This document shows positions 29,875 to 46,572 of a stretch of DNA of 64,000 nucleotides, piece by piece (position 1 is the first letter of the stretch; each line of letters starts with the position of its first letter). Both the position numbers and the translations under genes were made by a program. The notes under the pieces are model-generated. The model was not told the DNA's origin. It saw nothing but the letters and a program-made list of their open reading frames with translations, and did not search any database. Origin of the DNA: Eubacteriales bacterium (GTDB lineage: Bacteria; Bacillota; Clostridia; Oscillospirales; Acutalibacteraceae); NCBI GenBank assembly GCA_029225565.1, contig JAQXWS010000027.1:7585-71584 (forward strand). The letters are read 5' to 3'.

Positions 29875-30888
29875 GTGATTTTTTTGAACAAAAAAGGTAA
29901 GACATATTTTTTTGATAGCCCGCCTGTGATTATAGGCAGTGCCGGAGTTGTGGGCAAAAAAGAGGGCGAGGGTCCCTTGCGCAGCGAGTTTGACGCTGTA
30001 TTTGACAATACCGATATGGGAGAGGACAGCTACGAATTGGCGGAGTCCGCAATGCTAAAGGACGCGATTGTCAGAGCTACCCAAAAAGCAGGCGTTAGCC
30101 TTGGAGATGTGGATTTTATTATGACGGGGGATTTGTTGGATCAATGCGTGGGCTCCTGCTTTGCCATCAAGGATCTTAATGTGCCTTTTGTGGGTATGTA
30201 CGGTGCATGCTCCACCATGGCGTTGACCTTGTGCAATTCGGCTATGCTGATTGACGCAGGCGCAAGCCTTTGCGTGGCAGGTGCCAGCAGTCACTTCGCT
30301 TCCAGCGAGAGACAATTCCGTTATCCGCTGGAGTATGGCAGTCAGCGACCGCCAACGGCTCAGTGGACGGTAACCGGCGCAGGCTCTGCCGTTGTCAGCA
30401 GGGATGGCAATGGCGTGAATATTTGTGCAGTTCATATTGGTACGGTTACCGATTTGGGTATAAAGGATGCCAACAATATGGGCGCAGCAATGGCGCCGGC
30501 AGCAGCCCGCACCGTCAGCCAAATGCTGGATGATACGGACACCTGCCCCGACGACTATGATATGATACTCACCGGAGACCTGGGATATACAGGTACCGAG
30601 CTATTGCATCAGCTGTTACGCAAGGATTATAACAAGAATATCAAATCCAAGCATAATGACTGCGGACTGATGATATATAATTTGAAGGAGCAGGATGTGA
30701 ACTCCGGAGGTTCCGGTTGCGGCTGCAGCGCTTCTGTGCTTTGCTCTTATGTACTGGAGCGATTGAGAACCCGGGAGCTGAAGCGCGTGATGTTTGTGGC
30801 AACAGGCGCATTGATGTCCCCGACCTCCAGCAAGCAGGGCCGGAGTATTCCCGGCATAGCACACGGTGTATTATTGGAAGCAAAATAA
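29875..30888 (+). CDS. spoVAD: Stage V sporulation protein AD
   Basis: GKKEGEGPL, GDLLDQC, YGACSTM, ERQFRYPLEYGSQRP.TAQWTVTG, MGAAMAPAA, GGSGCGCSA, ATGALMSPTS. Confidence 0.95.
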   Translation: MIFLNKKGKTYFFDSPPVIIGSAGVVGKKEGEGPLRSEFDAVFDNTDMGEDSYELAESAMLKDAIVRATQKAGVSLGDVDFIMTGDLLDQCVGSCFAIKDLNVPFVGMYGACSTMALTLCNSAMLIDAGASLCVAGASSHFASSERQFRYPLEYGSQRPPTAQWTVTGAGSAVVSRDGNGVNICAVHIGTVTDLGIKDANNMGAAMAPAAARTVSQMLDDTDTCPDDYDMILTGDLGYTGTELLHQLLRKDYNKNIKSKHNDCGLMIYNLKEQDVNSGGSGCGCSASVLCSYVLERLRTRELKRVMFVATGALMSPTSSKQGRSIPGIAHGVLLEAK

Positions 30889-30910: not shown

Positions 30911-31120
30911 TGTTTGTAGCTATTTTGTTGAAGTTTAAATTACAAATCGTAAAATTTTATCGTTAACATGCATTTTTTAGACTACGAGTATAATTCTGTC
31001 AGTGGCTTTGCCCTATTATGTGTTTGATTTATTGACATGGACGATGGTTTGTTATATTATATAATTAATTATAAGTATTAAAATGGGCGTATTGTAACCG
31101 GTTTGTGATTGGGGAGAAGA

Positions 31121-31750
31121 ATGTATAAGTACATAAAAAGATTTTTGGATATAATTACTGCTTCTATAGCAGTGATAGTGCTTTCGCCATTGATGATAAT
31201 AACTGCAATTGCAGTAAGGCTGGAGTCGGAGGGACCTGCATTATTCTTGCAGGACAGAATCGGCCTTGGGGGCAATGTGTTCAAGATATATAAGTTTCGC
31301 TCCATGTGTCAGGGCGCAGAACATATCGGCACCGGTGTGTATAGTGGCGCCGATGATATGAGAGTAACTAAAGTCGGACGGATTATTCGCGCCACAAGTA
31401 TTGACGAGTTACCACAACTTTTCAATATTATCAAAGGGGATATGAGCTTTGTGGGTCCTCGTCCTCCCCTTACATATCATCCGTGGGAATACAGTGAGTA
31501 CACTCCACAGCAATTGCACATGTTTGATGTTCGCCCGGGCATTACAGGCTGGGCACAGGTGCACGGAAGAAAAGATGTAGAATGGCACAAAAGAATCGAG
31601 CTCAACTGCTGGTATGTTGACAATATGTCGTTATGGCTGGATATAAAAATTTTGCTTACAACGGTAATTAAGGTCCTAAAGAATGAGGACAATGTTAATG
31701 TTGGCGCCACTCTGGTAGTTGATGAGGAAAAAGAGACCGAAACGGTATAA
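31121..31750 (+). CDS. Initiating polyprenyl-phosphate sugar-1-phosphate transferase (PglC/WcfS-like)
   Basis: KRFLDII, F.IYKFRSM, IRATSIDELPQLFNIIKGDMSFVGPRP, RPGITGWAQV.GR; TTGACA-17-TATTAT promoter at 31032-31060. Confidence 0.93.
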   Translation: MYKYIKRFLDIITASIAVIVLSPLMIITAIAVRLESEGPALFLQDRIGLGGNVFKIYKFRSMCQGAEHIGTGVYSGADDMRVTKVGRIIRATSIDELPQLFNIIKGDMSFVGPRPPLTYHPWEYSEYTPQQLHMFDVRPGITGWAQVHGRKDVEWHKRIELNCWYVDNMSLWLDIKILLTTVIKVLKNEDNVNVGATLVVDEEKETETV

Positions 31751-31752
31751 TT

Positions 31753-32571
31753 ATGGCTTTAGAATACTTTTACATAACAAACAGCCCCGAATATGCAAAA
31801 GCATGCGAGCGAGCAGGCGTTGATAGAATCTTTGTTGATATGGAATATATCGGCAAGGATGAGCGTCAGGGTGGACTGGATACGGTAAAGAATCATCATA
31901 CGGTTGAAGATGTAAAAAATGTTAGAGCTGCTATCAGCAAGTCAAAGCTCCTTGTTAGAGTTAATCCGATTCATGACGGCTCAAAAGAAGAGATTAAATC
32001 TGTAATTACGGCAGGTGCGGATTATATAATGCTCCCGATGTGGAAATCGGTTGATGAGGTAAAGGAATTTATTCGACTTGTGGGTAAAGGTGCAAAAACC
32101 GTCCTCCTTTTGGAAACCGATGAGGCTCGGATGTGCCTTGACGAAGTGATAAAGCTCGATGGTATTGACGAAATCTATATCGGGCTGAACGATTTGCATT
32201 TGAGCCAGCACAAAAAATTTATGTTCGAGCTTTACACAGACGGAACGGTTGACGAAATTGTATCAAAGCTAAAATCAAAAAACATAAAATTCGGCATAGG
32301 CGGCGTAGGCAAGGTTAATTGCGACAATCTCCTTTCGGCAGAAAATATTTTGTGCGAGCATTACAGACTTGGCTCGTCGATGGTTATTCTGGCGAGAGCC
32401 TTTTGCGATTGGACAAGGTACAGCGTCGCAGAATTTGAAAATATTATGACAAAGGGCATTGCCGAAAACAGGGAGTATGAAAATTACATAGAAGACCAAT
32501 CGATTGATTATTTTAATGAAAAACATAAACAAACAGAGAAGATAATAGAAACAATAAAGGCTAACAAATGA
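31753..32571 (+). CDS. HpcH/HpaI aldolase / citrate lyase family protein
   Basis: GVDRIFVDME..GK..RQ, LVRVNP, IMLPM, LLLET, IYIGLNDL. Confidence 0.8.
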   Translation: MALEYFYITNSPEYAKACERAGVDRIFVDMEYIGKDERQGGLDTVKNHHTVEDVKNVRAAISKSKLLVRVNPIHDGSKEEIKSVITAGADYIMLPMWKSVDEVKEFIRLVGKGAKTVLLLETDEARMCLDEVIKLDGIDEIYIGLNDLHLSQHKKFMFELYTDGTVDEIVSKLKSKNIKFGIGGVGKVNCDNLLSAENILCEHYRLGSSMVILARAFCDWTRYSVAEFENIMTKGIAENREYENYIEDQSIDYFNEKHKQTEKIIETIKANK

Positions 32572-33476
32572 AATTACTTTTGACAGGTGCGTTCGGGTAC
32601 ACAGAAGAGCAAATTGAACATATTAAGTCCCTTGGCTACGAGGTAACCTTCGTTCAAGACGAAAGAGTACCTATTGAATTTGATGTGAGCGATATTGAGG
32701 CTGTGGTATGTAACGGATTATTTCTTTATACTCCTATAGAAAAGTTCAAAAGCCTTAAATTCATTCAGCTAACATCAGCCGGTCTTGACAGAGTGCCACT
32801 TGATTATATCAAGGAGCATAATATAAAGATTTTGAACGCAAGAGGCGTTTATTCTGCTCCAATGGCTGAGTTTGCATTATGCGGAGTCCTGCAACTATAC
32901 AAGCAATCGAGATTTTTCTATAAAAATCAAAAGCAGCATAAATGGGAAAAGCACAGAGGTTTGTTAGAATTAACCGACAAAAATGTACTCATTGTCGGTG
33001 CAGGCAGTATCGGCAGTGAGGTTGCAAAGCGTTTTTCCGCGTTTGACGCAAATGTTATCGGCGTAGATTTGTTCCCAAGTGATAATCCTAATTTTAAAGA
33101 AATCCATCCTATTGATGAGTTAGATAATCTGTTAAAAACAGCCGATATTGTGGTGTTGACATTACCGCTAACAAGTGATAACGAAGGCTTTTTTAATAAT
33201 GAAAAGTTTTGCCTTATGAAAGACAGTTCGGTATTTGTTAATATAGCAAGAGGCAAGCTTGTAAATCAAAACCATTTGGTTTCCGCATTAGAACAATGCA
33301 AAATTGCAGGTGCAGTTCTTGATGTTTTTGAAGAAGAACCACTTGAGGAAAGCAGCAAATTATGGGATTTTGACAATGTGATTATTACACCGCACAATAG
33401 CTTTGTGGGTGAGAATAACAACAAGAGAATGTTTGAAATTATAGTGAATAACACGGAGGTAATTTATGAGCAATAG
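32568..33476 (+). CDS. D-2-hydroxyacid dehydrogenase family protein
   Basis: QLTSAGLD, VGAGSIG, VLTLPLT, NIARG, GAVLDVFEEEPL, ITPHNS. Confidence 0.9.
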   Translation: MKLLLTGAFGYTEEQIEHIKSLGYEVTFVQDERVPIEFDVSDIEAVVCNGLFLYTPIEKFKSLKFIQLTSAGLDRVPLDYIKEHNIKILNARGVYSAPMAEFALCGVLQLYKQSRFFYKNQKQHKWEKHRGLLELTDKNVLIVGAGSIGSEVAKRFSAFDANVIGVDLFPSDNPNFKEIHPIDELDNLLKTADIVVLTLPLTSDNEGFFNNEKFCLMKDSSVFVNIARGKLVNQNHLVSALEQCKIAGAVLDVFEEEPLEESSKLWDFDNVIITPHNSFVGENNNKRMFEIIVNNTEVIYEQ

Positions 33477-35043
33477 ATTTGATGTTGAAAAGATTATCTC
33501 AGAAAATAAAGAGTTACAAAAATACTTATACACAAGAGGTTTTCTATTTACAAATGCAAATGTTAATTATGAATTATTCCCTTTTTATGGTAAATGGAAT
33601 GTTCAAAAAATTGGAAATTATACTTTATCTAATGACAAAAAAGTAAAAGTTTTTAAAGTCAAAACAGAAAAAGAAATAATTATACTGATTGGACATGTTT
33701 ACAATCCCTTTGATGGATTAATTGACGAAAATGAGATTTTGAATAAATATGCAAATAGCAATGATAGAATTTCGTATATGAATGAATGGACAGGCGTGTT
33801 TACTATAATTATAATTAGCGAGAATGGAGTTGAAATTTTCGGAGACTGTGCTGGTATGCAGGCAAATTACTATGGTTTTGTTAGAGGAGATTTTTATTTA
33901 ACTTCTCATTCACAACTAATTGGAGATTTGTGCGAATTAAAAAGATCTAAATATGTTCAGAAAATTACTAAATACCGTTTTTGGCAGATGTATGGTATTT
34001 TTTTACCTGGAGACATTTCACAATTCGATGAAATTAAAAGATTAGTTCCTAATACTTTTGTTCGCGTTAATATGCAAAACAGTCAGTGCGATATTATACG
34101 TTTTTATCCTTCGAGTGATTTAGTTAATAATAGTAATGAAAATGAGTATAACAGAACTATTGAAAAAATTGGTTCGTTAATGAACAAAAATATTGAATTG
34201 ATATCAAAGAAATGGTCTAAACCAGCTATTTCTATGACTGGTGGAATGGACAGCAAAGCAACAGTTGCTTGCACAAATGGGCTATATGATAAATTTAAGT
34301 ATTATAGTTATGTCACAATGGATGGCGATATTCCTGATTCAAAGGCAGCAAAAACAATTGCTGAAAAAATAGGCGTTGAGCATAAAACTTATGTTGTTTC
34401 GCGAAATGATAATGACTTTGAAAATTTGAATAAAATTACAAAGATTATGGAACATAATTTAGGCGATTTAGGTATAGTAAATCCAAACGATGTTAGGAAA
34501 CGAATATATTTTATGGATACTTCAGAATTTGATGTTGAAGTAAAGTCATGGGTTTCTGAGATTGGTAGGGCAAATTACTATAAAAAATTTGGATTAAAAA
34601 AGATGCCAAAACGACTACGTCCTCGTCAAATGACTTCTATGTACAAATTTTTCAGTTATAACAGATATACTGAAAAATTGACAGAAAGGATTTTTAAGGA
34701 GTATATAAATAAAACAAAATTTAACGAAATATATAATTATGATTCAAGCGATATGTATTTGTGGGAATTTCGATATGGTTCATGGGGTGGTTTAGTAATA
34801 ACTAGCGAGCACAGAGTATCTTATGACATTACCATTCCGTATAATAATAGATTGATAATGGAATTATTTTTGTCATTACCTTTAGAGAAAAGAATTAAAG
34901 ACGAACCGCATTATGATTTAATTAAGCACATGAACTCTGATATTGATGAACTTGGTATTACAATAGTGAATTACAACGAAACAAAAAGGAGAATGTATTT
35001 GGAAAAATTTTATTATCTAATTAACAACATCCTTCCTTGGTGA
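33466..35043 (+). CDS. Asparagine-synthetase-like ATP-dependent amide ligase (divergent)
   Basis: G.FTIII...FGDCAGMQANYYG (Ntn-like region without an N-terminal Cys) and PP-loop-like ISMTGGMDSK. Confidence 0.55.
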   Translation: MSNRFDVEKIISENKELQKYLYTRGFLFTNANVNYELFPFYGKWNVQKIGNYTLSNDKKVKVFKVKTEKEIIILIGHVYNPFDGLIDENEILNKYANSNDRISYMNEWTGVFTIIIISENGVEIFGDCAGMQANYYGFVRGDFYLTSHSQLIGDLCELKRSKYVQKITKYRFWQMYGIFLPGDISQFDEIKRLVPNTFVRVNMQNSQCDIIRFYPSSDLVNNSNENEYNRTIEKIGSLMNKNIELISKKWSKPAISMTGGMDSKATVACTNGLYDKFKYYSYVTMDGDIPDSKAAKTIAEKIGVEHKTYVVSRNDNDFENLNKITKIMEHNLGDLGIVNPNDVRKRIYFMDTSEFDVEVKSWVSEIGRANYYKKFGLKKMPKRLRPRQMTSMYKFFSYNRYTEKLTERIFKEYINKTKFNEIYNYDSSDMYLWEFRYGSWGGLVITSEHRVSYDITIPYNNRLIMELFLSLPLEKRIKDEPHYDLIKHMNSDIDELGITIVNYNETKRRMYLEKFYYLINNILPW

Positions 35044-35048
35044 TTATT

Positions 35049-36170
35049 ATGAGTAAAAAAGTATTATTAACTGCAACAGTACAAAGTCATATTGCCCAAT
35101 TCCATAAGCCTCTTGCAAAAATGCTTCATGATAACGGATATGAGGTTCATGTTGCTGCAAGGGACAATTTGGCAGAAAAGAACGGTCTTGCAATGGAATA
35201 TGCGGATAAGGTTTATAATATTCCGTTTGACCGCTCCCCGTTTAGCACAAGAAACATTAAAGCGTATAAAGAGCTTTCAAAGGTGCTTGCAGAAAACGAG
35301 TATGAGATAATTCATACCAATACTCCAATGGGAGGTATGGTAACTCGTTTGGCAGCAAATAAGTATCGTAAGAAGAATGGCACTAAGGTTTTCTACACAG
35401 CCCACGGTTTTCATTTTTATGACGGCGCACCAAAGAAGAATTGGTTAATCTATTATCCGATTGAAAAATCAATGTCACGATTTACAGACACACTCATTAC
35501 AATTACTAATGAGGACTATAAATTAGCAACAGAGAAATTTTATTGCAATGTAGTATATATGCACGGAGTAGGTGCTAATTCAACAAGGTTCTATGTGATG
35601 AGAGATGAGGAAAAGGCTAAGCTTCGTGATGAATTAGGCTATTCACAAGATGCTCCAATAATTCTTAATGTTGGCGAATTAAATGCCAATAAAAATCAAA
35701 AGAGTGTAATTCGAGCAATGAAAAAGGTGGTTGAAAAGCTACCTAATGCTAAGCTGTTGATTGCAGGTAACGGACCGGAACTTGAACATCATAAAACACT
35801 TATTGCTGAGCTTGGACTTGAGAATAATATTGAGCTACTTGGATATACCACAGAGATTTTTAAGTATATGAATATTTGTGATGTTCTTGTAGCTTGCAGT
35901 TACCGTGAAGGCTTGCCCTTAAATCTTATGGAAGCAATGCTTTGCGGAAAACCAATTGTGGCTTCAATTAATAGAGGTCATAAAGAACTTGTTGAAAACG
36001 GTAAAAATGGATTTTTGGTTCCGGTAGAGGACACAGATGCTTATGCACAAAAAATCCTTGAGGTTTTAGATAATCCGCATCCATTTAGTCAAAATGCGGT
36101 AGAACTTGTAAAGCCGTTTACAGATATTAGCGTGTTATGCGAATTAAAGAAATTATATAACTTAGGTTAG
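35049..36170 (+). CDS. GT4 family glycosyltransferase (EpsD-like)
   Basis: IHTNTPMGG...RLAA, YTAHGFHF, S.REGLP..LMEAM..GKPIVAS. Confidence 0.9.
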   Translation: MSKKVLLTATVQSHIAQFHKPLAKMLHDNGYEVHVAARDNLAEKNGLAMEYADKVYNIPFDRSPFSTRNIKAYKELSKVLAENEYEIIHTNTPMGGMVTRLAANKYRKKNGTKVFYTAHGFHFYDGAPKKNWLIYYPIEKSMSRFTDTLITITNEDYKLATEKFYCNVVYMHGVGANSTRFYVMRDEEKAKLRDELGYSQDAPIILNVGELNANKNQKSVIRAMKKVVEKLPNAKLLIAGNGPELEHHKTLIAELGLENNIELLGYTTEIFKYMNICDVLVACSYREGLPLNLMEAMLCGKPIVASINRGHKELVENGKNGFLVPVEDTDAYAQKILEVLDNPHPFSQNAVELVKPFTDISVLCELKKLYNLG

Positions 36171-36178
36171 GAAATAAT

Positions 36179-36982
36179 ATGGAAAATAAACCGCTTGTCT
36201 CCGTAATTATGGGAATATATAATTGCGCAGAAACTCTCGAAGAAGCTGTTCAGTGTATTATTAATCAAACTTACACTAATTGGGAATTAATTATGTGTGA
36301 TGATTGTTCAAAAGATAACACATATGAGGTAGCTTTGAAATTAGCAGAAAAGGATTCTCGAATTATAGTTATTAAGAATGAAAAGAATCTCACATTAGCT
36401 CCTACACTTAACAGATGTATTGATATCGCAAAAGGCGAATACATTGCCAGAATGGATGGTGATGATGTTTGTGATATAACGCGATTTGAAAAAGAATTGG
36501 ACTTTCTTGAAAATAATCCGCAGTATGCCATTGTTAGTTCTTTGATGAATCTTTATGATAAATGTGGTGTTTACAGAACAATAATGTATCGTGAAAAGCC
36601 ATCAAAAGAAAATTTTATTAAAGGTTCTCAGTTTTGTCATGCGGGCTGTATGATGAGAACAGAGGCAATAAAGACTGTTGGTGGATATAGTGAATCAATG
36701 AAATACAAGCGTGTAGAAGATTACGATTTATGGACTCGTATGTATAAGGCTGGTTATGTTGGTTTTAATATTCAAGAGCCGTTGTATTCTATGAGGGATG
36801 ATAGAAATGCAATTTCAAGGAGAACTCTTGAAAGTAGAAAGAACGAAGCGAGAGTTATCAAAAATGTTTATAAGTGGTTTAATATGCCTAAAAAAAATAT
36901 GATTCGTGTTATAATTCCTATAATCAAAGGGTTAGTTCCTAACTGTGTTTATAAGTATATACATAAAACTGGAGATAAATAA
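36179..36982 (+). CDS. GT2 family glycosyltransferase
   Basis: VSVIMGIYN, MCDDCS.D, YIARMDGDD, EDYDLW.RM. Confidence 0.92.
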   Translation: MENKPLVSVIMGIYNCAETLEEAVQCIINQTYTNWELIMCDDCSKDNTYEVALKLAEKDSRIIVIKNEKNLTLAPTLNRCIDIAKGEYIARMDGDDVCDITRFEKELDFLENNPQYAIVSSLMNLYDKCGVYRTIMYREKPSKENFIKGSQFCHAGCMMRTEAIKTVGGYSESMKYKRVEDYDLWTRMYKAGYVGFNIQEPLYSMRDDRNAISRRTLESRKNEARVIKNVYKWFNMPKKNMIRVIIPIIKGLVPNCVYKYIHKTGDK

Positions 36983-38082
36983 TGATAGTATATTACGGTG
37001 TTATAATTGCCGTGCTTGTCTTCGGAACATCGGCACAATTTGTCAACTCACGAGCAATACCAACGGAAAGAGTATCTTCTGATGGTACAATTAGATATAA
37101 GAACCATTACGGTATATTTTACCCAATTTTAGTTTTTATATTTATTTTTGTTGGTGGATTTAGATACTATGTTGGTACTGATTTCGGTGGTTATTATAAA
37201 TTATATAACTATAAGTGGAATGATGTTTTAGAGTCAATAAAAGCATTAGATGAACCTGGACTCAAATTAGTTTCTTTTATTGCGAGATATGTGTGGGATG
37301 ATGGTGTTTCTGTTATTTTGCTTAGTTGTATAATAACAACAGCATTGGTATTTTACGGTATTAGTAAATTTGACAATAATGACATAACGATAATGTTATT
37401 GATATATGTACTAATTGCTGGTTGGACTTTTTCGTTTAATGGTGTAAGGCAAGCTATGGCTGCATCAATAATTTTTGCTTTTGCAAGAGTTAATAAAAAC
37501 AATTGGATATTAAAGTATGTTTTAATATGCTTTATTGCTTTTTTGTTTCATAAATCTGCTCTTATGATGATACCGGTTTTATTATTGTCACATAGAAAAT
37601 TAAATAAATCACAAGTGTTATTATTAGTTATCAGTGCCGTTTTAATACCATTGTTTTTTGATTTTGCTTTTGATTTTATGGGTGCTGACACAACAAATGA
37701 AGACGCATTGGAATATATTGATAGACAAATAAATCCAATTAGAGTAGTTGTTTCTTTCGCTCCAGCTATATTATTAATATTTGTTGAAGATAAAAAAAGA
37801 TTTTTTGAGGACAATGGCTTTGCACTAAACCTGATGTTATTTAATGCAATTTTAACTCTTACTACGATGAATAGTGCATATTTGAATAGATTTACACAAT
37901 ATACGAGTATGTTTTTAATTATTTATTATCCAGCGACCTTAAAAGCGTTAAGCAAAAATATGCGCTTGATTGCAACATTTGCGGTAATACTTTTGTATTT
38001 CTTATACTTTAGATACGAGTTAACAAATGGAGTAGATGAGGTAGTGTGGAACTGGAGTTTCAGCCATTTTGGCGAAGCATAG
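36982..38082 (+). CDS. EpsG-family polysaccharide polymerase (Wzy)
   Basis: Polytopic; GFRYYVGTDF..Y, EPG, FNGVRQAMA, FHKSAL, NRF..Y. Confidence 0.85.
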   Translation: MIVYYGVIIAVLVFGTSAQFVNSRAIPTERVSSDGTIRYKNHYGIFYPILVFIFIFVGGFRYYVGTDFGGYYKLYNYKWNDVLESIKALDEPGLKLVSFIARYVWDDGVSVILLSCIITTALVFYGISKFDNNDITIMLLIYVLIAGWTFSFNGVRQAMAASIIFAFARVNKNNWILKYVLICFIAFLFHKSALMMIPVLLLSHRKLNKSQVLLLVISAVLIPLFFDFAFDFMGADTTNEDALEYIDRQINPIRVVVSFAPAILLIFVEDKKRFFEDNGFALNLMLFNAILTLTTMNSAYLNRFTQYTSMFLIIYYPATLKALSKNMRLIATFAVILLYFLYFRYELTNGVDEVVWNWSFSHFGEA

Positions 38083-38095
38083 TTTTGGAGGAGAT

Positions 38096-39079
38096 ATGAT
38101 TTCTGTAGCAATGGCTGTGTATAACGGTAGTAAATATATTATTAATCAACTTGAATCTATTAGAACACAAACAAGATCAGTTGATGAAGTTATCATGACG
38201 GATGACGGTTCGAACGATGGAACAATTGAACTTGTTGAAGAATATATAAAAAAACACAATTTAGAAAATTGGAAGATTATTAGAAATGAAAAAAATTTAA
38301 GGTTTAGTAAAAACTTTTTTAAAGCAGTTGATTATACACATGGCGACTATGTCTTTTTAGCTGACCAAGACGATGAGTGGCGTGAAGATAAAGTTGAATT
38401 GATGATTGCTGAATTTGAAAAAGATTCCAAATTGATGGCATTATCATCAACTTGTGTGATTATTGATGGAGAAGGAAATGATATTTCAAATTTAACAAAT
38501 GTTCCATTTCCTAATATGTCAGATGGAAAACTTGTTGATCACAGTTATAAAGAACTTGCTTTCAATTCAATTATTAGAGGTTGTACTGTTTGTATTAGAA
38601 GGGAAGTTGTTGAGCAAAATCATAATGTTGAGGTAGGACTATATTTAGGCCATGATTGGTTTTATAATACAGTAGCTTCAATCTTAGGAAAAAATAAAAC
38701 TTTAAATGTGCCTGTTTTTAGATACAGAGTACATGGTGAAAATGCTTCGTTGGGAAGGTATAATAGAAAAAATGCATTAGCAGTAGATCGTCAGAAAAAG
38801 ATTGATACACTACAACAAATTGCAGATGCACATAGATTTTTGCTTAATCAGTACAAGTTTCAAATGTCTCAAGATGATATTTGCTTTACAAATGTTATGA
38901 TATCATTTTTTGATGAACGTGTTAGAATGTATGAGAATAAAAGTCTATATATGTTTATGAAATTAGTAATTAGAGATTTTAAGTATTATGTTAATATCTA
39001 TGGAACGAAAAATGCTGCTTTACATACAATTTTGTCTGATTTTATGTATGCGTTTAATATTAATTTTAAGATAATATAA
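38096..39079 (+). CDS. GT2 family glycosyltransferase (rhamnosyltransferase-like)
   Basis: ISVAMAVYNG.KYI..QL.SI, DDGS.DGT, FLADQDDEW, GHDW, YRVHG.N. Confidence 0.88.
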   Translation: MISVAMAVYNGSKYIINQLESIRTQTRSVDEVIMTDDGSNDGTIELVEEYIKKHNLENWKIIRNEKNLRFSKNFFKAVDYTHGDYVFLADQDDEWREDKVELMIAEFEKDSKLMALSSTCVIIDGEGNDISNLTNVPFPNMSDGKLVDHSYKELAFNSIIRGCTVCIRREVVEQNHNVEVGLYLGHDWFYNTVASILGKNKTLNVPVFRYRVHGENASLGRYNRKNALAVDRQKKIDTLQQIADAHRFLLNQYKFQMSQDDICFTNVMISFFDERVRMYENKSLYMFMKLVIRDFKYYVNIYGTKNAALHTILSDFMYAFNINFKII

Positions 39080-39091
39080 AGAGGAATATTT

Positions 39092-40051
39092 ATGAATCCA
39101 TTAGTTTCGATTATTGTTCCAGTATATAATGTTGGACTATATCTTAACGATGCACTAAATAGTTTAAGAGAGCAAACATATAACAACTTGGAATTTGTAC
39201 TTATTGATGATGGTTCTGAAGACGAGAGTGGTGCAATCTGCGACAAGTTTGCAGAATTAGACAAAAGGTTTTCTGTTTTTCATAAGGAAAACGGAGGGGT
39301 GTCATCAGCTAGAAATATTGGCGTTGAAAAAGCAAGTGGCGAGTACATAATGTTTTTGGATGCCGATGATATGCTTGAAGAAAATGCTGTTGAAAAGCTT
39401 GTTGATATTATTACAAGAGAAACTGCAGATGTAGTGCTATTTGAATATACAGTTGACAGTGCAGATGGTTCATCAGTACCGGTTGTTCATTCAGAGTTAA
39501 ATGGGGAAATAGCAATAAAGGATGCCATTAAGCATTCTATAATGCCAACAAATAGATTTTTGTGGTCAAAAATTTATAAGGCTGAAATTGTTAAAAATAT
39601 TCGTTTTGATACTTCACTACATCTTGGTGAGGATACAGTTTTTGCATGTGAAGCTATGCTTCAAGGAAGCAAAGCTTACTTTTTAGCTGAACCACTTTAT
39701 CATTATGTTCAGTCAGAATCTAGTGCTACAAGAAAGCCATTCTTTGATAAAAGAATATTAAGTGGTAAGGATGCCTATTGGCGTTTGGTTGAAATATGCA
39801 AAGAAAACTATCCGGATTTAGTAAATATTGCAATTAAGCAATATGTTGAATTATTAATGATAATCATTATGGATATGTTTAAAAATCCAAAAGATAATGC
39901 AACTAATATCGAGCTATATTCAAAGGAAGTTAAGAAATATACAAGATCTGCAATAAAATCAGAAGATTGCACTCGTAGCACAATTATAAAATTAATATTA
40001 TGCAATATTAGTCCCAAACTTATGTACAAAGTGAGAAAGAAAATCAGATAA
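39092..40051 (+). CDS. GT2 family glycosyltransferase
   Basis: VSIIVPVYNV, DDGS.D.S, NGGVSSARN.G, FLDADD, GED..F. Confidence 0.92.
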   Translation: MNPLVSIIVPVYNVGLYLNDALNSLREQTYNNLEFVLIDDGSEDESGAICDKFAELDKRFSVFHKENGGVSSARNIGVEKASGEYIMFLDADDMLEENAVEKLVDIITRETADVVLFEYTVDSADGSSVPVVHSELNGEIAIKDAIKHSIMPTNRFLWSKIYKAEIVKNIRFDTSLHLGEDTVFACEAMLQGSKAYFLAEPLYHYVQSESSATRKPFFDKRILSGKDAYWRLVEICKENYPDLVNIAIKQYVELLMIIIMDMFKNPKDNATNIELYSKEVKKYTRSAIKSEDCTRSTIIKLILCNISPKLMYKVRKKIR

Positions 40052-40066
40052 TAAGGAGATTTATAA

Positions 40067-42427
40067 GTGAAGGCTGGAATTGTAACGCTTTTTGATAATA
40101 ATTATGGCAACAAGTTGCAGAATTATGCTGTTCAATATTTGCTTGAAAATAAAGGTTTTGATGTTGAAACCGTAGTTGTAAATACACGGAGTAGGGGTAT
40201 TGTTAAACCCAAAAATACGAAAACTGAGTTAGCAAAATTTTTACCATCATACATGGTTGATGTTTTGCGTTCGAGATTTAAAACTAAATATTTGTACAAG
40301 AATTCAAGAGACGGCATTTTATCTTCTATTAAATTTGCAAAAAAATCAGACTTTAAAGATTTGCTTGTTGCTAAAAGCGAATCATTTGATGAATTTACAA
40401 AAAAGAATTTGCATATTTCTAAAAACGAATTGAACTTTGAAAATGAAAACGATGCTGTTTGGGATAGTTATGACTATTTTATTGCCGGTTCTGATCAAGT
40501 TTGGAATCCCACATATCCAAGTACCTCTCGATTGTATTTTTTGTCATTTGCACCAAAGAACAAGCGTATTGCATTGGCACCAAGTATAGGGCTTTCTGAG
40601 CTTCCTGAATATGTCAAACCTTTGTATACTGAATGGATCAATGGCTTTGAAGCCTTGTCTGTTCGTGAAGAAAAAGGTGCTGCGATTATCAAAGAGCTTA
40701 CAGGTCGTGATGTTCCTGTTCTCGCAGATCCAACTCTTTGTGTTCCAAAGGACGAGTGGATAAGAATAGAAGAAATGCCTAATTTTGATTGTTCTGTACC
40801 TTATGTGTTTACATATTTTTTAGGTAATGAAACAAATAAATACAGAAGGTTCATTGACAAATATGCAAAAGAAAATAACTGTAAAGTAATAAACATTTTT
40901 GATTTGCGTGAACCTGAACATTATGTTGTTAATCCATCACACTTTATTTATTTGATTCATAATGCCAAAATGGTATTTACCGATTCATTTCATGGTAGCG
41001 TATTTTCTTTGATTATGCATACACCATTTGTTGTGTTTGATAGAATTGAAAATGGTGGACAAGGTATGAGTTCAAGAATTGATACTTTGCTCAAAACATT
41101 TTCTATGGAAAACAGACATTTTAATAAAATTGAAAAGGACATTGACAATATTGATTTTTCAAATGTTGATGATGCAATAAAAACTCTTCAACAAAAAACA
41201 GATCATTTCTTAAAAAAATCATTCGATCAATTACCTAAAATCAAGGAAGACAACAAAGTTTCTGGTTTTGTAGATTTTCTGGATGAAAAATCAGATTGCT
41301 GTGGATGTCATGCTTGTTATAACGCTTGTCCTAAGAATTGTATTACTATGGATACTGATAATGAAGGCTTTTGGTATCCAAATATTAATACTGAAGAATG
41401 TATTCATTGCAATATGTGTCAAAAGGTGTGTCCGTCAGTTAATAAAAGTGTAATTGAAAACAAACCAACTTCATATATCGGATATAACAGTAATCAAGAT
41501 GTAAGAAGAAATAGTTCATCCGGTGGTATGTTCACTCCTATTGCAGAAAGTATTATTGCTAATGACGGAGTCGTATTTGGTGCAGCTTTCAATGATGTCT
41601 TTGAAATTGAACATATTAAAATTGATACTATCGAAGAATTAAGTAAACTTCGTGGTTCAAAGTATGTTCAAAGCAAAATAGGAGATACATATAAGCAAAC
41701 TAAAGACCTGCTAACAGCAGGAAATAAAGTTTTGTTTACAGGAACTCCTTGTCAAATTGAAGGTTTGTATTCATATCTTGGTAAGTATATAAATGATAAT
41801 CTGTTTACACAAGATATTATTTGCCACGGTGTTCCTTCACCAAATGTTTGGAATGAGTATCTAAAATATAGAGCAAATGGCGCAGATATCAAGGATGTTT
41901 CGTTTAGAGATAAGAAATATGGTTGGCACTATTTCTCGATGAAAATTGATACCGATAAGAAAAAATATACAAAGCGACTTGATGAGGATCTGTTCATTAA
42001 ATTGTTCCTTGATAACACAATATTGCGTCCATCCTGTTATGCTTGTAAATATAAGAAAGAAATTAGAATTTCTGATTTCACCTTAGCGGATTGTTGGCAA
42101 CCGAATACCGTTAAATCACAATTAAAAGATGATGATAAAGGTTTGTCAATGATTTTTGTGAACACAGAAAAAGGTAAAAAATTATTTGAGGAAATCAAGG
42201 ATAAATATGTCGTTCAAGAAATAGATTATGATTTGGCAATTAAAAGCCAATCTGCAGCTACTTCTTCAGTAAAACCAAATATTCATAGACAGGATTTCTT
42301 CGTTAAGTTCTGTAATAATGATTTTGCATATATTGATAAAAATTGGTATGGTAATGATATTATTACGAATATAAAAAATTCTATGATTTATAAAAAAACA
42401 AAGCTTAATTTAATAATAAAAAGGTAA
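40067..42427 (+). CDS. Polysaccharide pyruvyltransferase domain fused to 4Fe-4S / FrhB-like (F420 hydrogenase beta subunit) domain
   Basis: N-terminal NYGNKLQNYA, GSDQVWNP, SVRE..G, DPT, TDSFHG. C-terminal CCGCHAC..ACP, CIHC.MC..VCP, SSSGG.F, GSKYVQS, GTPCQ, CHGVPS, LRPSCY.C. Confidence 0.88.
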   Translation: MKAGIVTLFDNNYGNKLQNYAVQYLLENKGFDVETVVVNTRSRGIVKPKNTKTELAKFLPSYMVDVLRSRFKTKYLYKNSRDGILSSIKFAKKSDFKDLLVAKSESFDEFTKKNLHISKNELNFENENDAVWDSYDYFIAGSDQVWNPTYPSTSRLYFLSFAPKNKRIALAPSIGLSELPEYVKPLYTEWINGFEALSVREEKGAAIIKELTGRDVPVLADPTLCVPKDEWIRIEEMPNFDCSVPYVFTYFLGNETNKYRRFIDKYAKENNCKVINIFDLREPEHYVVNPSHFIYLIHNAKMVFTDSFHGSVFSLIMHTPFVVFDRIENGGQGMSSRIDTLLKTFSMENRHFNKIEKDIDNIDFSNVDDAIKTLQQKTDHFLKKSFDQLPKIKEDNKVSGFVDFLDEKSDCCGCHACYNACPKNCITMDTDNEGFWYPNINTEECIHCNMCQKVCPSVNKSVIENKPTSYIGYNSNQDVRRNSSSGGMFTPIAESIIANDGVVFGAAFNDVFEIEHIKIDTIEELSKLRGSKYVQSKIGDTYKQTKDLLTAGNKVLFTGTPCQIEGLYSYLGKYINDNLFTQDIICHGVPSPNVWNEYLKYRANGADIKDVSFRDKKYGWHYFSMKIDTDKKKYTKRLDEDLFIKLFLDNTILRPSCYACKYKKEIRISDFTLADCWQPNTVKSQLKDDDKGLSMIFVNTEKGKKLFEEIKDKYVVQEIDYDLAIKSQSAATSSVKPNIHRQDFFVKFCNNDFAYIDKNWYGNDIITNIKNSMIYKKTKLNLIIKR

Positions 42428-42432
42428 TAGAT

Positions 42433-43359
42433 ATGAGTAATCCAAAAGTAAGTTTATTAGTTCCTTGTTACAATATTTCAGATGTATGTGAAAAGTTTTT
42501 TGTATCGTTATTGAATCAAACCTATGATAATTTGGAAATAGTTTTAATAAATGACGGCTCTAATGATAATACAGAAGATGTGCTTCTTGAAAACAAGGAA
42601 AAATTAGAGCAAAGAGGGTATGAAGTAAAATATATTTATCAAGATAACAAAGGTCTCGGCGGAGCAATAAATACAGGGTTAAAGGCTTTTACAGGGGAAT
42701 TCTTGTGTTGGGCAGATCCTGATGATTTTTTCGAACCGAATTCGTTTGAACTTCGCGTTAATTATATGACAGAACATCCAGAATGTGCGATTGTTTCAAG
42801 TGATGCCTACATTTACAATAATAATGAAAAAAGATTGTTGAGCTTATCTTTTCCTCATAATAGTGAAAAAGACCAATTTAAATTGCTATTAAAGAAAGAG
42901 TCAATGTTTTGCTCAGGTTGCCATATGATTCGTGTATCTGCCTTCGAAAAAGTAAATCCTGAAAGAGATATTTATGAATACCGTCGTGGACAAAATTGGC
43001 AATTATTGCTACCAATGTACTATTATTATGAAAGACATTTTTTGAATGTCCCTTTGTATAATTATGTAGTGTATGAAAATAGCATGTCTCATATTAATGA
43101 AACATATGAAGAAAAGATTCAAAGGAATAATGAGCACAAGGATGTTATTATTGAAACTTTAAACCGTATGAAATTGTCTACTGGGGACAAGAAGAAAATT
43201 TTGCAAAACGTTGACAGGATTTATAATAAAATAAATCTAGAGTACTCATATACAGAAAGAAATAAATCTGAGTTTAAAAAATATTATAAGATTTGTAAAA
43301 ATAATAATTCTGTTACACATAGAGATTTTATAAAAAAAATTATGATATTATTTAGGTGA
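42433..43359 (+). CDS. GT2 family glycosyltransferase
   Basis: VSLLVPCYN, NDGS.D.T, N.GLGGAIN.GL, WADPDD, GQNWQLLLP. Confidence 0.88.
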   Translation: MSNPKVSLLVPCYNISDVCEKFFVSLLNQTYDNLEIVLINDGSNDNTEDVLLENKEKLEQRGYEVKYIYQDNKGLGGAINTGLKAFTGEFLCWADPDDFFEPNSFELRVNYMTEHPECAIVSSDAYIYNNNEKRLLSLSFPHNSEKDQFKLLLKKESMFCSGCHMIRVSAFEKVNPERDIYEYRRGQNWQLLLPMYYYYERHFLNVPLYNYVVYENSMSHINETYEEKIQRNNEHKDVIIETLNRMKLSTGDKKKILQNVDRIYNKINLEYSYTERNKSEFKKYYKICKNNNSVTHRDFIKKIMILFR

Positions 43360-43363
43360 AATA

Positions 43364-44920
43364 ATGAGTCCAAATAATAAATCGAGAAAATTAATGGTAG
43401 TGAAAAATATCATTTGGGGATACGGGAATACTATTTTTACTACAATTTTGAAATTTGTATCAAGGTGGGCGTTTATTCATACTATTGGTGTTACTTATCT
43501 TGGAATTAATGGATTATATATGAACATTTTAAGTGTTCTTTCATTAACTGAACTTGGTATATCATCAGCAATGAATTACAGCCTTTATAAACCGGTTTCA
43601 GAAAATGATACTGAAAAAATTAAGTCAATAATGAAAGTGTACAAAAAAGCGTACCGAGTTATTGCATTTGTAGTATCTATTATCGGTGTTATGTTATTGC
43701 CCTTCTTGCAATACTTAATTAAAGATGCAAAGGGTTTAAGTAACAATGAATTAGTTTTTTATTATCTCTTGTTTTTGTTTAATACGGTATCTTCTTATTT
43801 TGTTTCTTATAAATATAGTTTGAACAATGCAGAACAAAAAGGATACATTACTAATAATATAAATACTGTTACTACAATTATTACTACTATTTTACAGATT
43901 ATTGCTCTGTTTGTTTTTGAGTCATTTACTGTATATTTAGTTGTTCAAATTTTGGTTCAATTAATCGGTAAAATTTTTGCTTCGTTGTATATTAATAAGC
44001 TTTATCCTTACTTAAAGGATAAAAATGTAAAAAGACTTGACAAAGAGACGAAAAAGAGCCTATTTGTTAATACAAAATCTTTAATGATGCATAAGCTTGG
44101 AGAGGTTGCTGTTAATCAAACTGATAATATTATTATTTCATCATTTATTAGTGTAAAAACAGTTGGTTTAATTTCCAACTACACGCTTGTTACGGGTACG
44201 GTTGATACATTTTTGTCAATAGTCTTTAATAATATTGTTGGTAGTTTAGGAAACTTATGTGCAACTACTGACAAAGAATATCAGTATAGAATTTATAAGA
44301 TATATGATTTTGTTGATTTTTGGATGTACGGATTTTGTGCAATAGCCTATGTTTCATTAATTCAGCCTTTTTCAGCTCTTATGTGGGGCAATGAATATGT
44401 TGTTGATTTTGAAGTAGTTGTTCTAATAATATTAAATACATATATTGTTGGCCAAAGAATTCCGCTTAATAACATGAAAACCGCTGCTGGAGTTTTCAAG
44501 CAGGATCAATATTTGCCTATAATACAAGCAGTATTGAATTTGGGAATTTCAATTTTATTAGCAAAAAAAGTCGGACTTATAGGTGTTTATATTGGAACAA
44601 TAGTATCGGGTATTATTCCAACATTTATCAGACCTTTATTAGTATATAAACCTTTGTTTGATAAAAATTCAGGTGAGTTTTATTTAATATTTTTTAAACA
44701 TTTGTTTGTTGTAGTAACAATAGGTGCTATAAACTATTATATTACAAGTCTTGTAATGTCCAAACTGAATTGGATAACATTTATGTTTTCGGTTATTATT
44801 ACAGCGATATTACCAAACATATTTATAATTTTGTTATATTTTAAAACAGATGAGTTTAAGTATGTAAAAAATATGATAATTAAAGTATTTAACAAAAATA
44901 GCATAAAAAGCAAATCCTAA
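43364..44920 (+). CDS. Wzx-type polysaccharide flippase
   Basis: About 14 TM helices; [35 protein letters not shown]. Confidence 0.85.
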
Positions 44921-44933
44921 AGGAGATAACAGA

Positions 44934-45026
44934 ATGAAAGGTATTATTCTTGCAGGTGATAGCGGAACAAGACTTTATCCGCTCACAATGATGACATCAA
45001 AGTAATTGTTGCAGAATTATGATAAG
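44934..45026 (+). pseudogene. rfbA: Glucose-1-phosphate thymidylyltransferase 5' remnant
   Basis: AAGGAG SD, then [33 protein letters not shown] replaces the expected Gln codon of SKQLLP.YDK, and similarity is lost afterwards. Confidence 0.88.
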
Positions 45027-45124
45027 TTTCTTCTTGTTTTCGTTAAAGGTGATAATGTTCGTGATTAGTTTTCATTGAAGATTACTGTAGCTTAAAAGTT
45101 AATATATCCCAATTGAGTGCCAAG

Positions 45125-45185
45125 AGTGCCGGGAATGGAAATGACAATGATTATGTCATTTCATCCTGGCACTTTTTTATTTTTT
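45125..45185. other. Long imperfect hairpin (terminator-like or mobile-element remnant)
   Basis: AGTGCC..GGA..GAAATGACA / TGTCATTTC..ATCC..GGCACT followed by a T tract. Confidence 0.55.
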
Positions 45186-45480
45186 TCAATAAGTCAATAG
45201 CCTAAAAAATATTAAAATGTAATATAAAGAAGTGTAAGGATTTTATTATGAAAATCTTTATATATGCTACCAGACCTTTTTGCTGGTGCTGGTGGTATAC
45301 ATAAGGATTTCCTTAAATATTAAAAAATTAAATCTGGTGTTTTTGGACGCGTACAGAAACGACGGATACATAACTGATGGACAAGCTGTATATAGGCTTT
45401 AAGTCAGATTAAGTACCCTCTTTTTTGTTGCGTCTTTTTTTGTATCCGTCTGTCTTGCCAGGACAGAAAGGGATACTCAA

Positions 45481-45675
45481 ATGAAGGTTTTTTATCAATT
45501 TGCTGATGGTACGACATCAATAGTTGAGGTTGATAATGAATTAGGCGATCAAATCAAAGAAATGGAACGCTACGAAGACAAAATACAAAAAAGAGAGCAA
45601 GGGGATATGTCCAAAAGAATGCATAAAATTTTAGCAAGAATTAGGGAATTTGAGAGAGCGCGAAAAGTATTTTAA
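45481..45675 (+). CDS. Small ICE/phage-type sigma-70-region-4-like protein, apparently internally deleted
   Basis: MKVFYQFADGTTSIVEVDNELGDQI resembles the N-terminus of mobile-element sigma-like proteins; SKRMHKILARIREF resembles their HTH exit helix; AAAGGGA SD. Confidence 0.45.
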   Translation: MKVFYQFADGTTSIVEVDNELGDQIKEMERYEDKIQKREQGDMSKRMHKILARIREFERARKVF

Positions 45676-45894
45676 AAATGCAAAGAAAGTTGGATATATC
45701 AAGCCATTAGAAAAATACACAAACAATACGATAATTAAAAAAATAGTAAACCGTTTAAAAAGTATAATCAAGTAACAATATTTATTTTCTATGTGATGTT
45801 GTGTTGAAAATGTTGCAGAAAAATATGTTGCATTGGTATTGATTTGTTGTTATAATGATATCGTCAAAAAAATTCATAATTGAGGAGTAAAATT

Positions 45895-46572
45895 ATGGCA
45901 GACGAAAAGAAAAAAATCAGTCTCGGCGGCATTGACAGTGCCGCAGAGGAAAAAGGCTCATTTATCAAAACTGTTTGGCAGCTTGTCAAGTTTTTGGTAG
46001 TATCCGGTCTTGTTACCATCATTCAGTTGGTACTGGCTAATGTGCTTCCCTTTGTATTTGACAAGGTAACAACACCTGTATGGGGATTTCTTCAGGGCAT
46101 TTTTGACCCGAATGTAGTTTTTGACCCATCCACAGCAGAGGGCGCAAAGCAGGTTGCAAAGTATGTAGTTGATGCAAGCGGTAACCTTCTTGGCGATTCG
46201 GCTATTGTTAACGGTGCTGTTGTTGCCGGCGGTATTGTAACCTTTGGTTACTTGCTTCCGTTCTTCCTGTCAAACCTTATTGCCAACATTTACGGCTTCT
46301 ATCAAAACAAGAAGACAACATTCAAGTCAGACGCTCCATGGTACAACTTTGCAGCATACATTGTACTTATGATAGCTCTTATTCTGTTCTCTACTTGGTT
46401 CCAGGGATGGCTTGTAGGTATTATGGCAAAGATTCCTTGGGCATGGCTGCAGCCTCTTGCAAGAACAATTGCAGGTCTTGCTGCCGGCTTTGTACAGATG
46501 GTAGTTCTCTTCCCGATGGAGAAGTTCGTTCTTCTGAAAGAAAAGAAGGAAGACGCCCCTGCAGAGGCATAA
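45895..46572 (+). CDS. GtrA-like membrane protein
   Basis: WQLVKFLVVSGLVTIIQL, FYQNKKTTFKS, four hydrophobic segments; GAGGAG SD; TTGCAT-17-TATAAT promoter. Confidence 0.6.
   Translation: MADEKKKISLGGIDSAAEEKGSFIKTVWQLVKFLVVSGLVTIIQLVLANVLPFVFDKVTTPVWGFLQGIFDPNVVFDPSTAEGAKQVAKYVVDASGNLLGDSAIVNGAVVAGGIVTFGYLLPFFLSNLIANIYGFYQNKKTTFKSDAPWYNFAAYIVLMIALILFSTWFQGWLVGIMAKIPWAWLQPLARTIAGLAAGFVQMVVLFPMEKFVLLKEKKEDAPAEA

Follow-up and report, generated by a model that had tools for sequence, protein, structure and literature searches.

We analyzed a 64,000-nucleotide stretch of DNA (the window), which forms part of contig C27 of a gut Clostridia metagenome-assembled genome (G000; 1.76 Mb, 91% complete). 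A polysaccharide operon begins in the window after spoVAD (29875-30888) and extends from 31.1 to about 45 kb. The five genes at its 5' end, all on the plus strand, form a cassette that we tentatively read as making a C-branched acidic sugar for the first position of the polysaccharide repeat:

31109..31750, + strand: PglC-like small monotopic phosphoglycosyl transferase (PGT), 213 amino acids (aa); PF02397 (Bac_transf), 226 bits
31753..32571, + strand: divergent HpcH/HpaI-type (PK-like) TIM barrel, 272 aa; PF03328, 38.8 bits
32568..33476, + strand: D-isomer-specific 2-hydroxyacid dehydrogenase (2-HADH), 302 aa; PF02826 (2-Hacid_dh_C), 184 bits
33466..35043, + strand: Cys-less asparagine-synthetase-like (AsnB-like) PP-loop enzyme, 525 aa; PF00733 (Asn_synthase), 23.3 bits
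35037..36170, + strand: GT4 glycosyltransferase (Glyco_trans_4_2 type); PF00534 and PF13477

The PGT gene ends 2 nt before the next gene, the following pair of genes overlaps by 4 nt and the pair after that by 11 nt; the three genes behind the PGT gene are translationally coupled. An initial annotation of this DNA had placed three genes that do not encode glycosyltransferases directly after the initiating transferase, and the open reading frames at 31753-32571, 32568-33476 and 33466-35043 behind the PGT gene confirmed this arrangement. Its family assignments for the three products (HpcH, 2-HADH and AsnB-like) also agreed with our Pfam matches. We found no paper describing such a cassette in the literature searched.

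By its sequence, the PGT is the priming enzyme of the locus and is of the small monotopic PglC type. Its closest solved structure was PglC (8e37, E 2e-48), with residues 3-193 aligned to residues 3-188, that is, over the full length. PglC acts on a C-4-modified 6-deoxy-N-acetylhexosamine (6-deoxy-HexNAc).

The protein encoded directly behind the PGT is a divergent member of its family. Its HpcH_HpaI match was weak (38.8 bits; cut-off 25) and covered residues 6-151 only, and a protein-atlas look-up returned the name of its own family and nothing more. A profile built from the family matched YfaU (E 9e-7), and HpcH/HpaI-type aldolases were its only significant matches. Residues E121 and D147 were invariant across 33 HpcH-like sequences and aligned with the YfaU metal ligands E153 and D179. 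The protein also carries a conserved G-x-G-G-x-G loop and a G-x-N-D-L motif. An AlphaFold2 (AF2) model with a predicted local distance difference test (pLDDT) score of 94 showed a (beta/alpha)8 barrel of the PK-like superfamily. In comparisons using Foldseek and VIA, HpcH aldolases gave the best root-mean-square deviation (rmsd; 2.5-2.8) and the best identity, with Z scores of 18.1-18.7; pyruvate kinase was level with them on Z (19), followed in the fold search by enzyme I and malyl-CoA lyase. As modeled, the barrel thus belongs to the pyruvate/phosphoenolpyruvate (PEP)-binding TIM-barrel superfamily, and from its sequence family we propose that gene 31753..32571 encodes a pyruvate C-C bond-forming enzyme. 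A PEP mutase or phosphonate route was also considered and set aside: there was no PEP mutase or isocitrate lyase fold among the matches listed, and no phosphonate genes were seen.

Both domains of the 2-HADH were present, with additional matches to PF00389 (45.6 bits) and NF041369 (208 bits). Its catalytic triad was intact, comprising Arg (in NIARG), Glu (in FEEEP) and His (in TPHN) when aligned to 1wwk and 3hg7, and on this basis we propose that it reduces a 2-oxo group. The AsnB-like protein was placed by fold search only, a search of the Protein Data Bank with its sequence having returned nothing meaningful. Its PF00733 match barely exceeded the cut-off of 21, and TIGR01536 matched with E 1e-11. 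The structure prediction that the initial annotation had called for gave an AsnB-type two-domain fold (AF2, pLDDT 95), for which Foldseek ranked carbapenam synthetase and beta-lactam synthetase best, then TsnB9 and AsnB (1ct9, E 1e-11), with human ASNS also among the matches. The PP-loop S256-x-x-G259-G260-x-D262-S263 was invariant in its homologues (n=49). As the initial annotation had noted, the protein does not have the N-terminal nucleophile Cys: it starts with MSNRFD, the N-terminus is unconserved, and an MC start occurred in 1 of the 49 homologues. We propose that it is an ATP-dependent amide synthetase without glutaminase.

To place the cassette in context, we determined gene co-occurrence in a sample of 399 Clostridia genomes and drew gene-order maps for 27 loci (numbered with the prefix L). 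A narrow peptide-pattern scan of genome contigs yielded five loci, and wider genome and contig searches supplied the remainder. The order PGT, HpcH-like, HADH, AsnB-like, GT4 recurred across Clostridia genomes and metagenome contigs, being carried by Faecousia intestinalis, three more genome records, Terrisporobacter glycolicus and several metagenome contigs, with AsnB-like identities of 32-63%. The cultured carriers are T. glycolicus and F. intestinalis CLA-AA-H192. Homologues number in the thousands and occur in about 5% of the sampled genomes; the HpcH-like gene was present in 22 of 399. The AsnB-like gene was present in six of the 399, all six of which were HpcH-like-positive, and PGT, HpcH-like and HADH genes were all present in 12 of the 14 intact AsnB-like loci. 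The co-occurrence of the three genes, which the initial annotation had named as a check on its proposal, is thus far beyond chance. The GT4 gene was syntenic in L001, L002, L005, L015, L016, L039 and L065 (50-61% identity) and marks the conserved end of the cassette; its product, whose NCBIfam matches to BshA, PglJ and PglH were each under the cut-off, probably adds the second sugar.

The three enzymes are unequal partners: the HpcH-like gene is linked to the PGT gene, the second enzyme is interchangeable and the AsnB-like enzyme is optional. The HpcH-like gene adjoined a small PGT gene in 23 of 25 loci, and a search for longer HpcH-like relatives (contexts including L073, L075 and L080) revealed many PGT-HpcH fusion proteins, one of them in L081. 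Other fusions joined the HpcH-like domain to DegT, a PglD-like hexapeptide acetyltransferase, a pyridoxal phosphate (PLP) decarboxylase, GT4, Wzy_C, Acyl_transf_3 or CoA_binding_3, the last being the membrane module with which PglF-like dehydratases begin. For most of these fusion partners, the substrates are nucleotide sugars or lipid-linked glycans rather than free metabolites. Many loci held the HpcH-like and PGT genes with no ligase whatever, and L065, L075, L080 and L081 had the PGT/HpcH, HADH and GT4 backbone without the AsnB-like gene. GC content changed stepwise along the cassette, from 43.5% in the PGT gene through 40% (HpcH-like) and 37% (HADH) to 28.8% (AsnB-like) and back to 36% (GT4). 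The closest relative of the AsnB-like protein from another sample was 68% identical, versus 96% for relatives of the HpcH-like protein in other samples. These values, together with the backbones that do without the AsnB-like gene, show that the starter module is the older part and that this gene, very low in GC, is an optional insert in it. The GC steps and the identities of the relatives also suggest that a conserved 5' end is joined to a variable, recombining serotype region.

Two further arrangements were recorded among these loci. In L080 (4907-9815), a PglF-like dehydratase gene is followed by an HpcH-like gene with a CoA_binding_3 module, and a lone CoA_binding_3 gene lies further upstream. 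In L012 (3200-6697; G199, contig C22), the AsnB-like gene adjoins a canonical glutamine-dependent asparagine synthase gene (631 aa, with GATase domains); genes for a GT10 fucosyltransferase and a Wzt-type ABC transporter lie close by, and the PGT/HpcH pair lies 26 kb away on the same contig.

The enzyme that follows the HpcH-like protein was 2-HADH in 14 of the mapped loci. In L055, L056 and L068, its position was taken by an Ldh_2 reductase, which is not homologous to it, and in L057, L064, L066 and L074 it was replaced by a class IV aminotransferase with an ornithine/diaminopimelate (Orn/DAP)-type PLP decarboxylase. A DegT aminotransferase with a PLP decarboxylase constituted a further variant of this step, and some loci contained an ATP-grasp ligase or Acyl_transf_3. 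The decarboxylase/aminotransferase variant would turn a keto-acid unit into an amine, not a hydroxy acid. That 2-HADH, Ldh_2 and the aminotransferase with PLP decarboxylase are interchangeable strengthens the view that the HpcH-like enzyme makes an alpha-keto acid. The chemical logic of the initial annotation, in which a pyruvate-type aldolase is followed by a 2-oxo reduction and that by an adenylating amide formation, also holds. We rejected an assignment of 2-HADH as a sugar 4-ketoreductase and of the barrel as a keto-sugar epimerase, because the alternative partners need an alpha-keto acid, an alpha-amino acid or a carboxylate. The PLP decarboxylase gene is organized in two ways: in L074 (9001-12670), the HpcH-like domain is fused to the Orn/DAP-type decarboxylase, and in L057, L064 and L066 the decarboxylase is a separate gene adjoining the HpcH-like gene. 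In both forms the PGT and the class IV aminotransferase come next.

A PglF/CapD-like UDP-GlcNAc 4,6-dehydratase gene lay directly upstream of the cassette in L039, L058, L063, L065, L074 and L080, and in L077 wzz and a tyrosine-kinase gene separated a PglF-like dehydratase gene from the cassette PGT, which began about 1.4 kb further downstream. All 22 HpcH-positive genomes contained the dehydratase, compared with 292 of 399 (73%) overall; under independence the chance of 22/22 would be 0.73^22, about 0.001, although related genomes are not independent. In G000, the only full-length copy lies on another contig, in locus L072:

C59:6365-8269: PglF/CapD-like dehydratase, 634 aa

This copy is an orphan, situated between the gene for a 1907-aa Listeria-Bacteroides-repeat surface protein and trkH/trkA, far from glycan loci. 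No convincing DegT aminotransferase was detected in this genome (the best match was partial, at 45.9 bits); in the other five AsnB-like genomes, DegT is present elsewhere in the genome. Because no partner aminotransferase was found for the orphan dehydratase, its 4-keto product needs a consumer. Likewise, no match to UDP-sugar 6-dehydrogenase (PF03721) exceeded the cut-off in G000 (91% complete), G048 (97%) or G143 (98%), so there would be no uronic acid available for amidation, and the proposed branch acid would be the sole cassette-encoded carboxylate in this genome. The window thus contributes a clean five-gene form of the cassette, in a genome with an orphan dehydratase and in which no dehydrogenase or convincing aminotransferase was found.

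Taking these results together, we propose, with a little less than even confidence, that pyruvate is added to C-4 of a UDP-4-keto-6-deoxy-HexNAc, that the 2-oxo group is then reduced and the acid amidated, and that the product is the C-branched acidic first sugar of the repeat. The orphan dehydratase would supply UDP-2-acetamido-2,6-dideoxy-hexos-4-ulose. The HpcH-like enzyme would direct a pyruvate enolate onto the C-4 carbonyl to give a 4-C-(CH2-CO-COOH) branch, whose 2-oxo group the 2-HADH would convert to a 2-hydroxy group. The Cys-less AsnB-like enzyme would then adenylate the branch carboxylate and form an amide, for which free ammonia would be the simplest nitrogen donor. Finally, the PGT would transfer the sugar phosphate onto undecaprenyl phosphate and the GT4 would add the next sugar. 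On this reading the cassette makes a reduced analogue of shewanellose, a branched sugar compared below. We infer all of these steps from what was observed of families, folds, motifs, synteny, fusions, partner interchange, and gene presence and absence. Addition of pyruvate at C-4 by the barrel is argued for by the substrate needs of its partners, its tie and fusions to the PGT, the link to the dehydratase, the orphan state of that dehydratase here and the closeness of the PGT to PglC. In particular, adjacency, fusions and, in the case of the dehydratase, 22/22 co-occurrence tie the HpcH-like gene to PGT and dehydratase, which suggests that the side chain is assembled directly on the nucleotide sugar. 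Shewanellose, moreover, demonstrates that precisely such a skeleton, carboxamide included, does occur in nature (PMC4052302).

Several observations weigh against this proposal. The usual acceptors of HpcH-type enzymes are aldehydes, not ketones. HpcH/HpaI aldolases use a catalytic Arg (R70/R74) and the His of a D-x-E-H motif; here the invariant R69 lies two residues ahead of the YfaU catalytic Arg, the hidden Markov model pairs N71 with R74, and the motif reads D29-M-E31-Y32, with Tyr replacing His. The structure search does not separate HpcH aldolases from pyruvate kinase and other PEP-binding domains, and the donor could therefore be PEP instead of pyruvate. The dehydratase is common (73%) and the genomes are related, which makes the 22/22 count moderately informative at most. 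L073 has DegT and a PglD-like enzyme beside the HpcH domain, an arrangement that could equally make an ordinary 4-amino sugar. In L013, L014 and L078, moreover, the AsnB-like gene lies between UDP-sugar dehydrogenase and epimerase genes, like WbpO/WbpS/WbpP.

The barrel might accordingly not be an aldolase at all, and its Mg-enolate site might instead serve PEP-dependent transfer or an oxaloacetate-type decarboxylation that supplies another alpha-keto acid unit to the following enzymes. The partial Pfam match, the structural ties to the PEP-binding domains of pyruvate kinase and enzyme I, the loss of the catalytic His to Tyr and a G-x-N-D-L motif that reads like that of PEP-utilizing enzymes would all fit, and the conserved G-x-G-G-x-G loop may be a phosphate site. 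Yet the sequence profile was significant for HpcH/HpaI aldolases only, the best rmsd and identity were with the HpcH family, and both metal ligands are kept, which makes this quite unlikely in our view. The initial annotation had envisaged a free acid: the aldolase would join pyruvate to a small aldehyde, 2-HADH would yield a 2,4-dihydroxy acid, and the AsnB-like enzyme would N-acylate an amino sugar with it or amidate an acid. The enzyme families fit such a scheme, and in published routes to acyl-branched sugars free 4-hydroxy-2-oxo acids are the products of pyruvate aldolases, among them a member of the aldolase/citrate-lyase family (PMC9306805). DegT occurs with ATP-grasp ligases in L058 and L063, as N-acylation would lead one to expect, and elsewhere in the five other AsnB-like genomes. 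In the present genome, however, an amine source is wanting, no convincing DegT having been found, and the cassette has no deacetylase or aminotransferase, so acylation of an amino sugar fits poorly here. A free acid would also leave unexplained the near-obligate adjacency or fusion of the HpcH-like protein to the PGT, the dehydratase N-terminal module, GT4 and Wzy, as well as the unconsumed 4-keto sugar in L039 and L074, where a dehydratase is present with no aminotransferase or reductase to take up its product; and many HpcH-like and PGT loci have no ligase. We therefore consider it unlikely. The initial annotation treated the trio as one unit making a free acyl group; the genes do co-occur, but the data instead link the HpcH-like gene to PGT and dehydratase and show the AsnB-like gene to be optional.

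A third possibility separates the AsnB-like enzyme from the HpcH-like and HADH enzymes, leaving it to amidate a hexuronic acid, as WbpS and WbtH do, or a pyruvate ketal or lactyl group that the fusion protein encoded at 40067-42427 would introduce. The dehydrogenase- and epimerase-flanked copies in L013, L014 and L078 speak for it, as do pyruvyltransferase genes in the window, L004, L012, L039, L078 and L079, and the low GC of the gene marks an independent insert. Against it, the dehydrogenase was not found in G000, G048 or G143, where uronic-acid amidation, the other end use named in the initial annotation, consequently fits poorly. The dehydrogenase-adjacent copies form no clade and interleave with other copies in the tree, making a conserved uronic-acid substrate unlikely. 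A tblastn search for the window pyruvyltransferase gave no hit in those parts of L001, L002, L005 and L013-L016 that were retrieved. The AsnB-like gene is always in HpcH-like-positive genomes (6/6) and usually wedged between HADH and GT4. We regard a separate role as very unlikely, and retain amidation of a C-4 branch acid as our tentative reading.

GC content falls along the operon and is mostly low. The operon genes 3' of the trio are:

GT4, as listed above
four GT2 glycosyltransferases
EpsG-type polymerase
pyruvyltransferase/ferredoxin/FrhB fusion
518-aa hydrophobic protein

The fusion (40067-42427) is a single 786-aa open reading frame combining a polysaccharide pyruvyltransferase, a 2x[4Fe-4S] ferredoxin and an FrhB-like domain; in L078 and L079, which bear the AsnB-like gene, the pyruvyltransferase and ferredoxin/FrhB parts are two neighboring, unfused genes. 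The hydrophobic 518-aa product of 43364-44920 has no Pfam family and is possibly a flippase; a counterpart in L065 (521 aa) ends a similar locus. We found no Wzz or tyrosine-kinase genes in the polysaccharide locus of the window.

More broadly, the HpcH-like family may represent a new class of nucleotide-sugar C-branching enzyme, serve as a hub of diversification in gut Clostridia, where the branch is reduced, transaminated, decarboxylated, N-acetylated or amidated, and provide the missing genetic basis of shewanellose-type sugars. This wider claim is possible, but we advance it with more doubt than conviction. If true, the surface polysaccharides of gut Clostridia would carry at their base C-branched acidic sugars made by a common and unstudied gene set, in which the first genes for a branch of the shewanellose type would be found. 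Branched nucleotide sugars would then be accessible through a metal-dependent aldolase as well as through the thiamine diphosphate (ThDP) route, and a modular set of tailoring enzymes, able to reduce, aminate, decarboxylate or amidate, would shape commensal antigenic diversity.

Among known systems, the predicted product most resembles shewanellose, 2-acetamido-2,6-dideoxy-4-C-(3'-carboxamide-2',2'-dihydroxypropyl)-D-galactose, from the O-polysaccharide of Shewanella putrefaciens A6 (PMC4052302). Both would share a 6-deoxy-HexNAc skeleton that bears at C-4 a pyruvate-shaped branch of three carbons with a terminal carboxamide, an analogy by which we infer the link to the cassette. Shewanellose is known by structure, and we found no genes assigned to it; whereas it has a hydrated 2'-keto group, the 2-HADH of the cassette predicts a 2'-hydroxy group, and the cassette host is a Gram-positive gut anaerobe. 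The bacillosamine pathway (PglF-PglE-PglD-PglC in Campylobacter pgl; EpsC/N/M/L in B. subtilis) also has a membrane-anchored UDP-GlcNAc 4,6-dehydratase, C-4 tailoring, a PglC-like PGT and a GT4. By contrast, the cassette has HpcH-like, 2-HADH and AsnB-like enzymes instead of an aminotransferase and an acetyltransferase, and the dehydratase is unlinked here.

ThDP-dependent pathways to acyl-branched sugars, represented by YerE, ErwE and MMAR_2332 with the pyruvate aldolases ErwI and MMAR_2331 (PMC9306805), likewise involve a pyruvate aldolase when an NDP-4-keto-6-deoxy sugar acquires its C-4 branch, followed by a reductase. They depend on decarboxylation of the keto acid by a ThDP carboligase, whereas none of the 13 genes at 31109-46572 gave a ThDP-enzyme Pfam match; the cassette branch would keep its carboxylate, which the AsnB-like enzyme would amidate. 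For that last step, beta-lactam and carbapenam synthetases offer the same AsnB fold of two domains, the N-terminal one inactive, and likewise use the PP-loop to adenylate a carboxylate before amide formation, although they are only 10-12% identical to the AsnB-like protein, form a lactam using an amine of the substrate itself and belong to antibiotic pathways rather than a glycan locus. The WbpS/WbtH hexuronamide (GalNAcAN) amidotransferases resemble it in being AsnB-family enzymes of polysaccharide loci that convert a sugar carboxylate to a carboxamide, with dehydrogenase and epimerase neighbors matched in three AsnB-like loci. They keep the glutaminase Cys, whereas the AsnB-like enzyme does not have it and searches of three carrier genomes yielded no UDP-sugar 6-dehydrogenase; its predicted substrate is instead the carboxylate of the C-4 branch.

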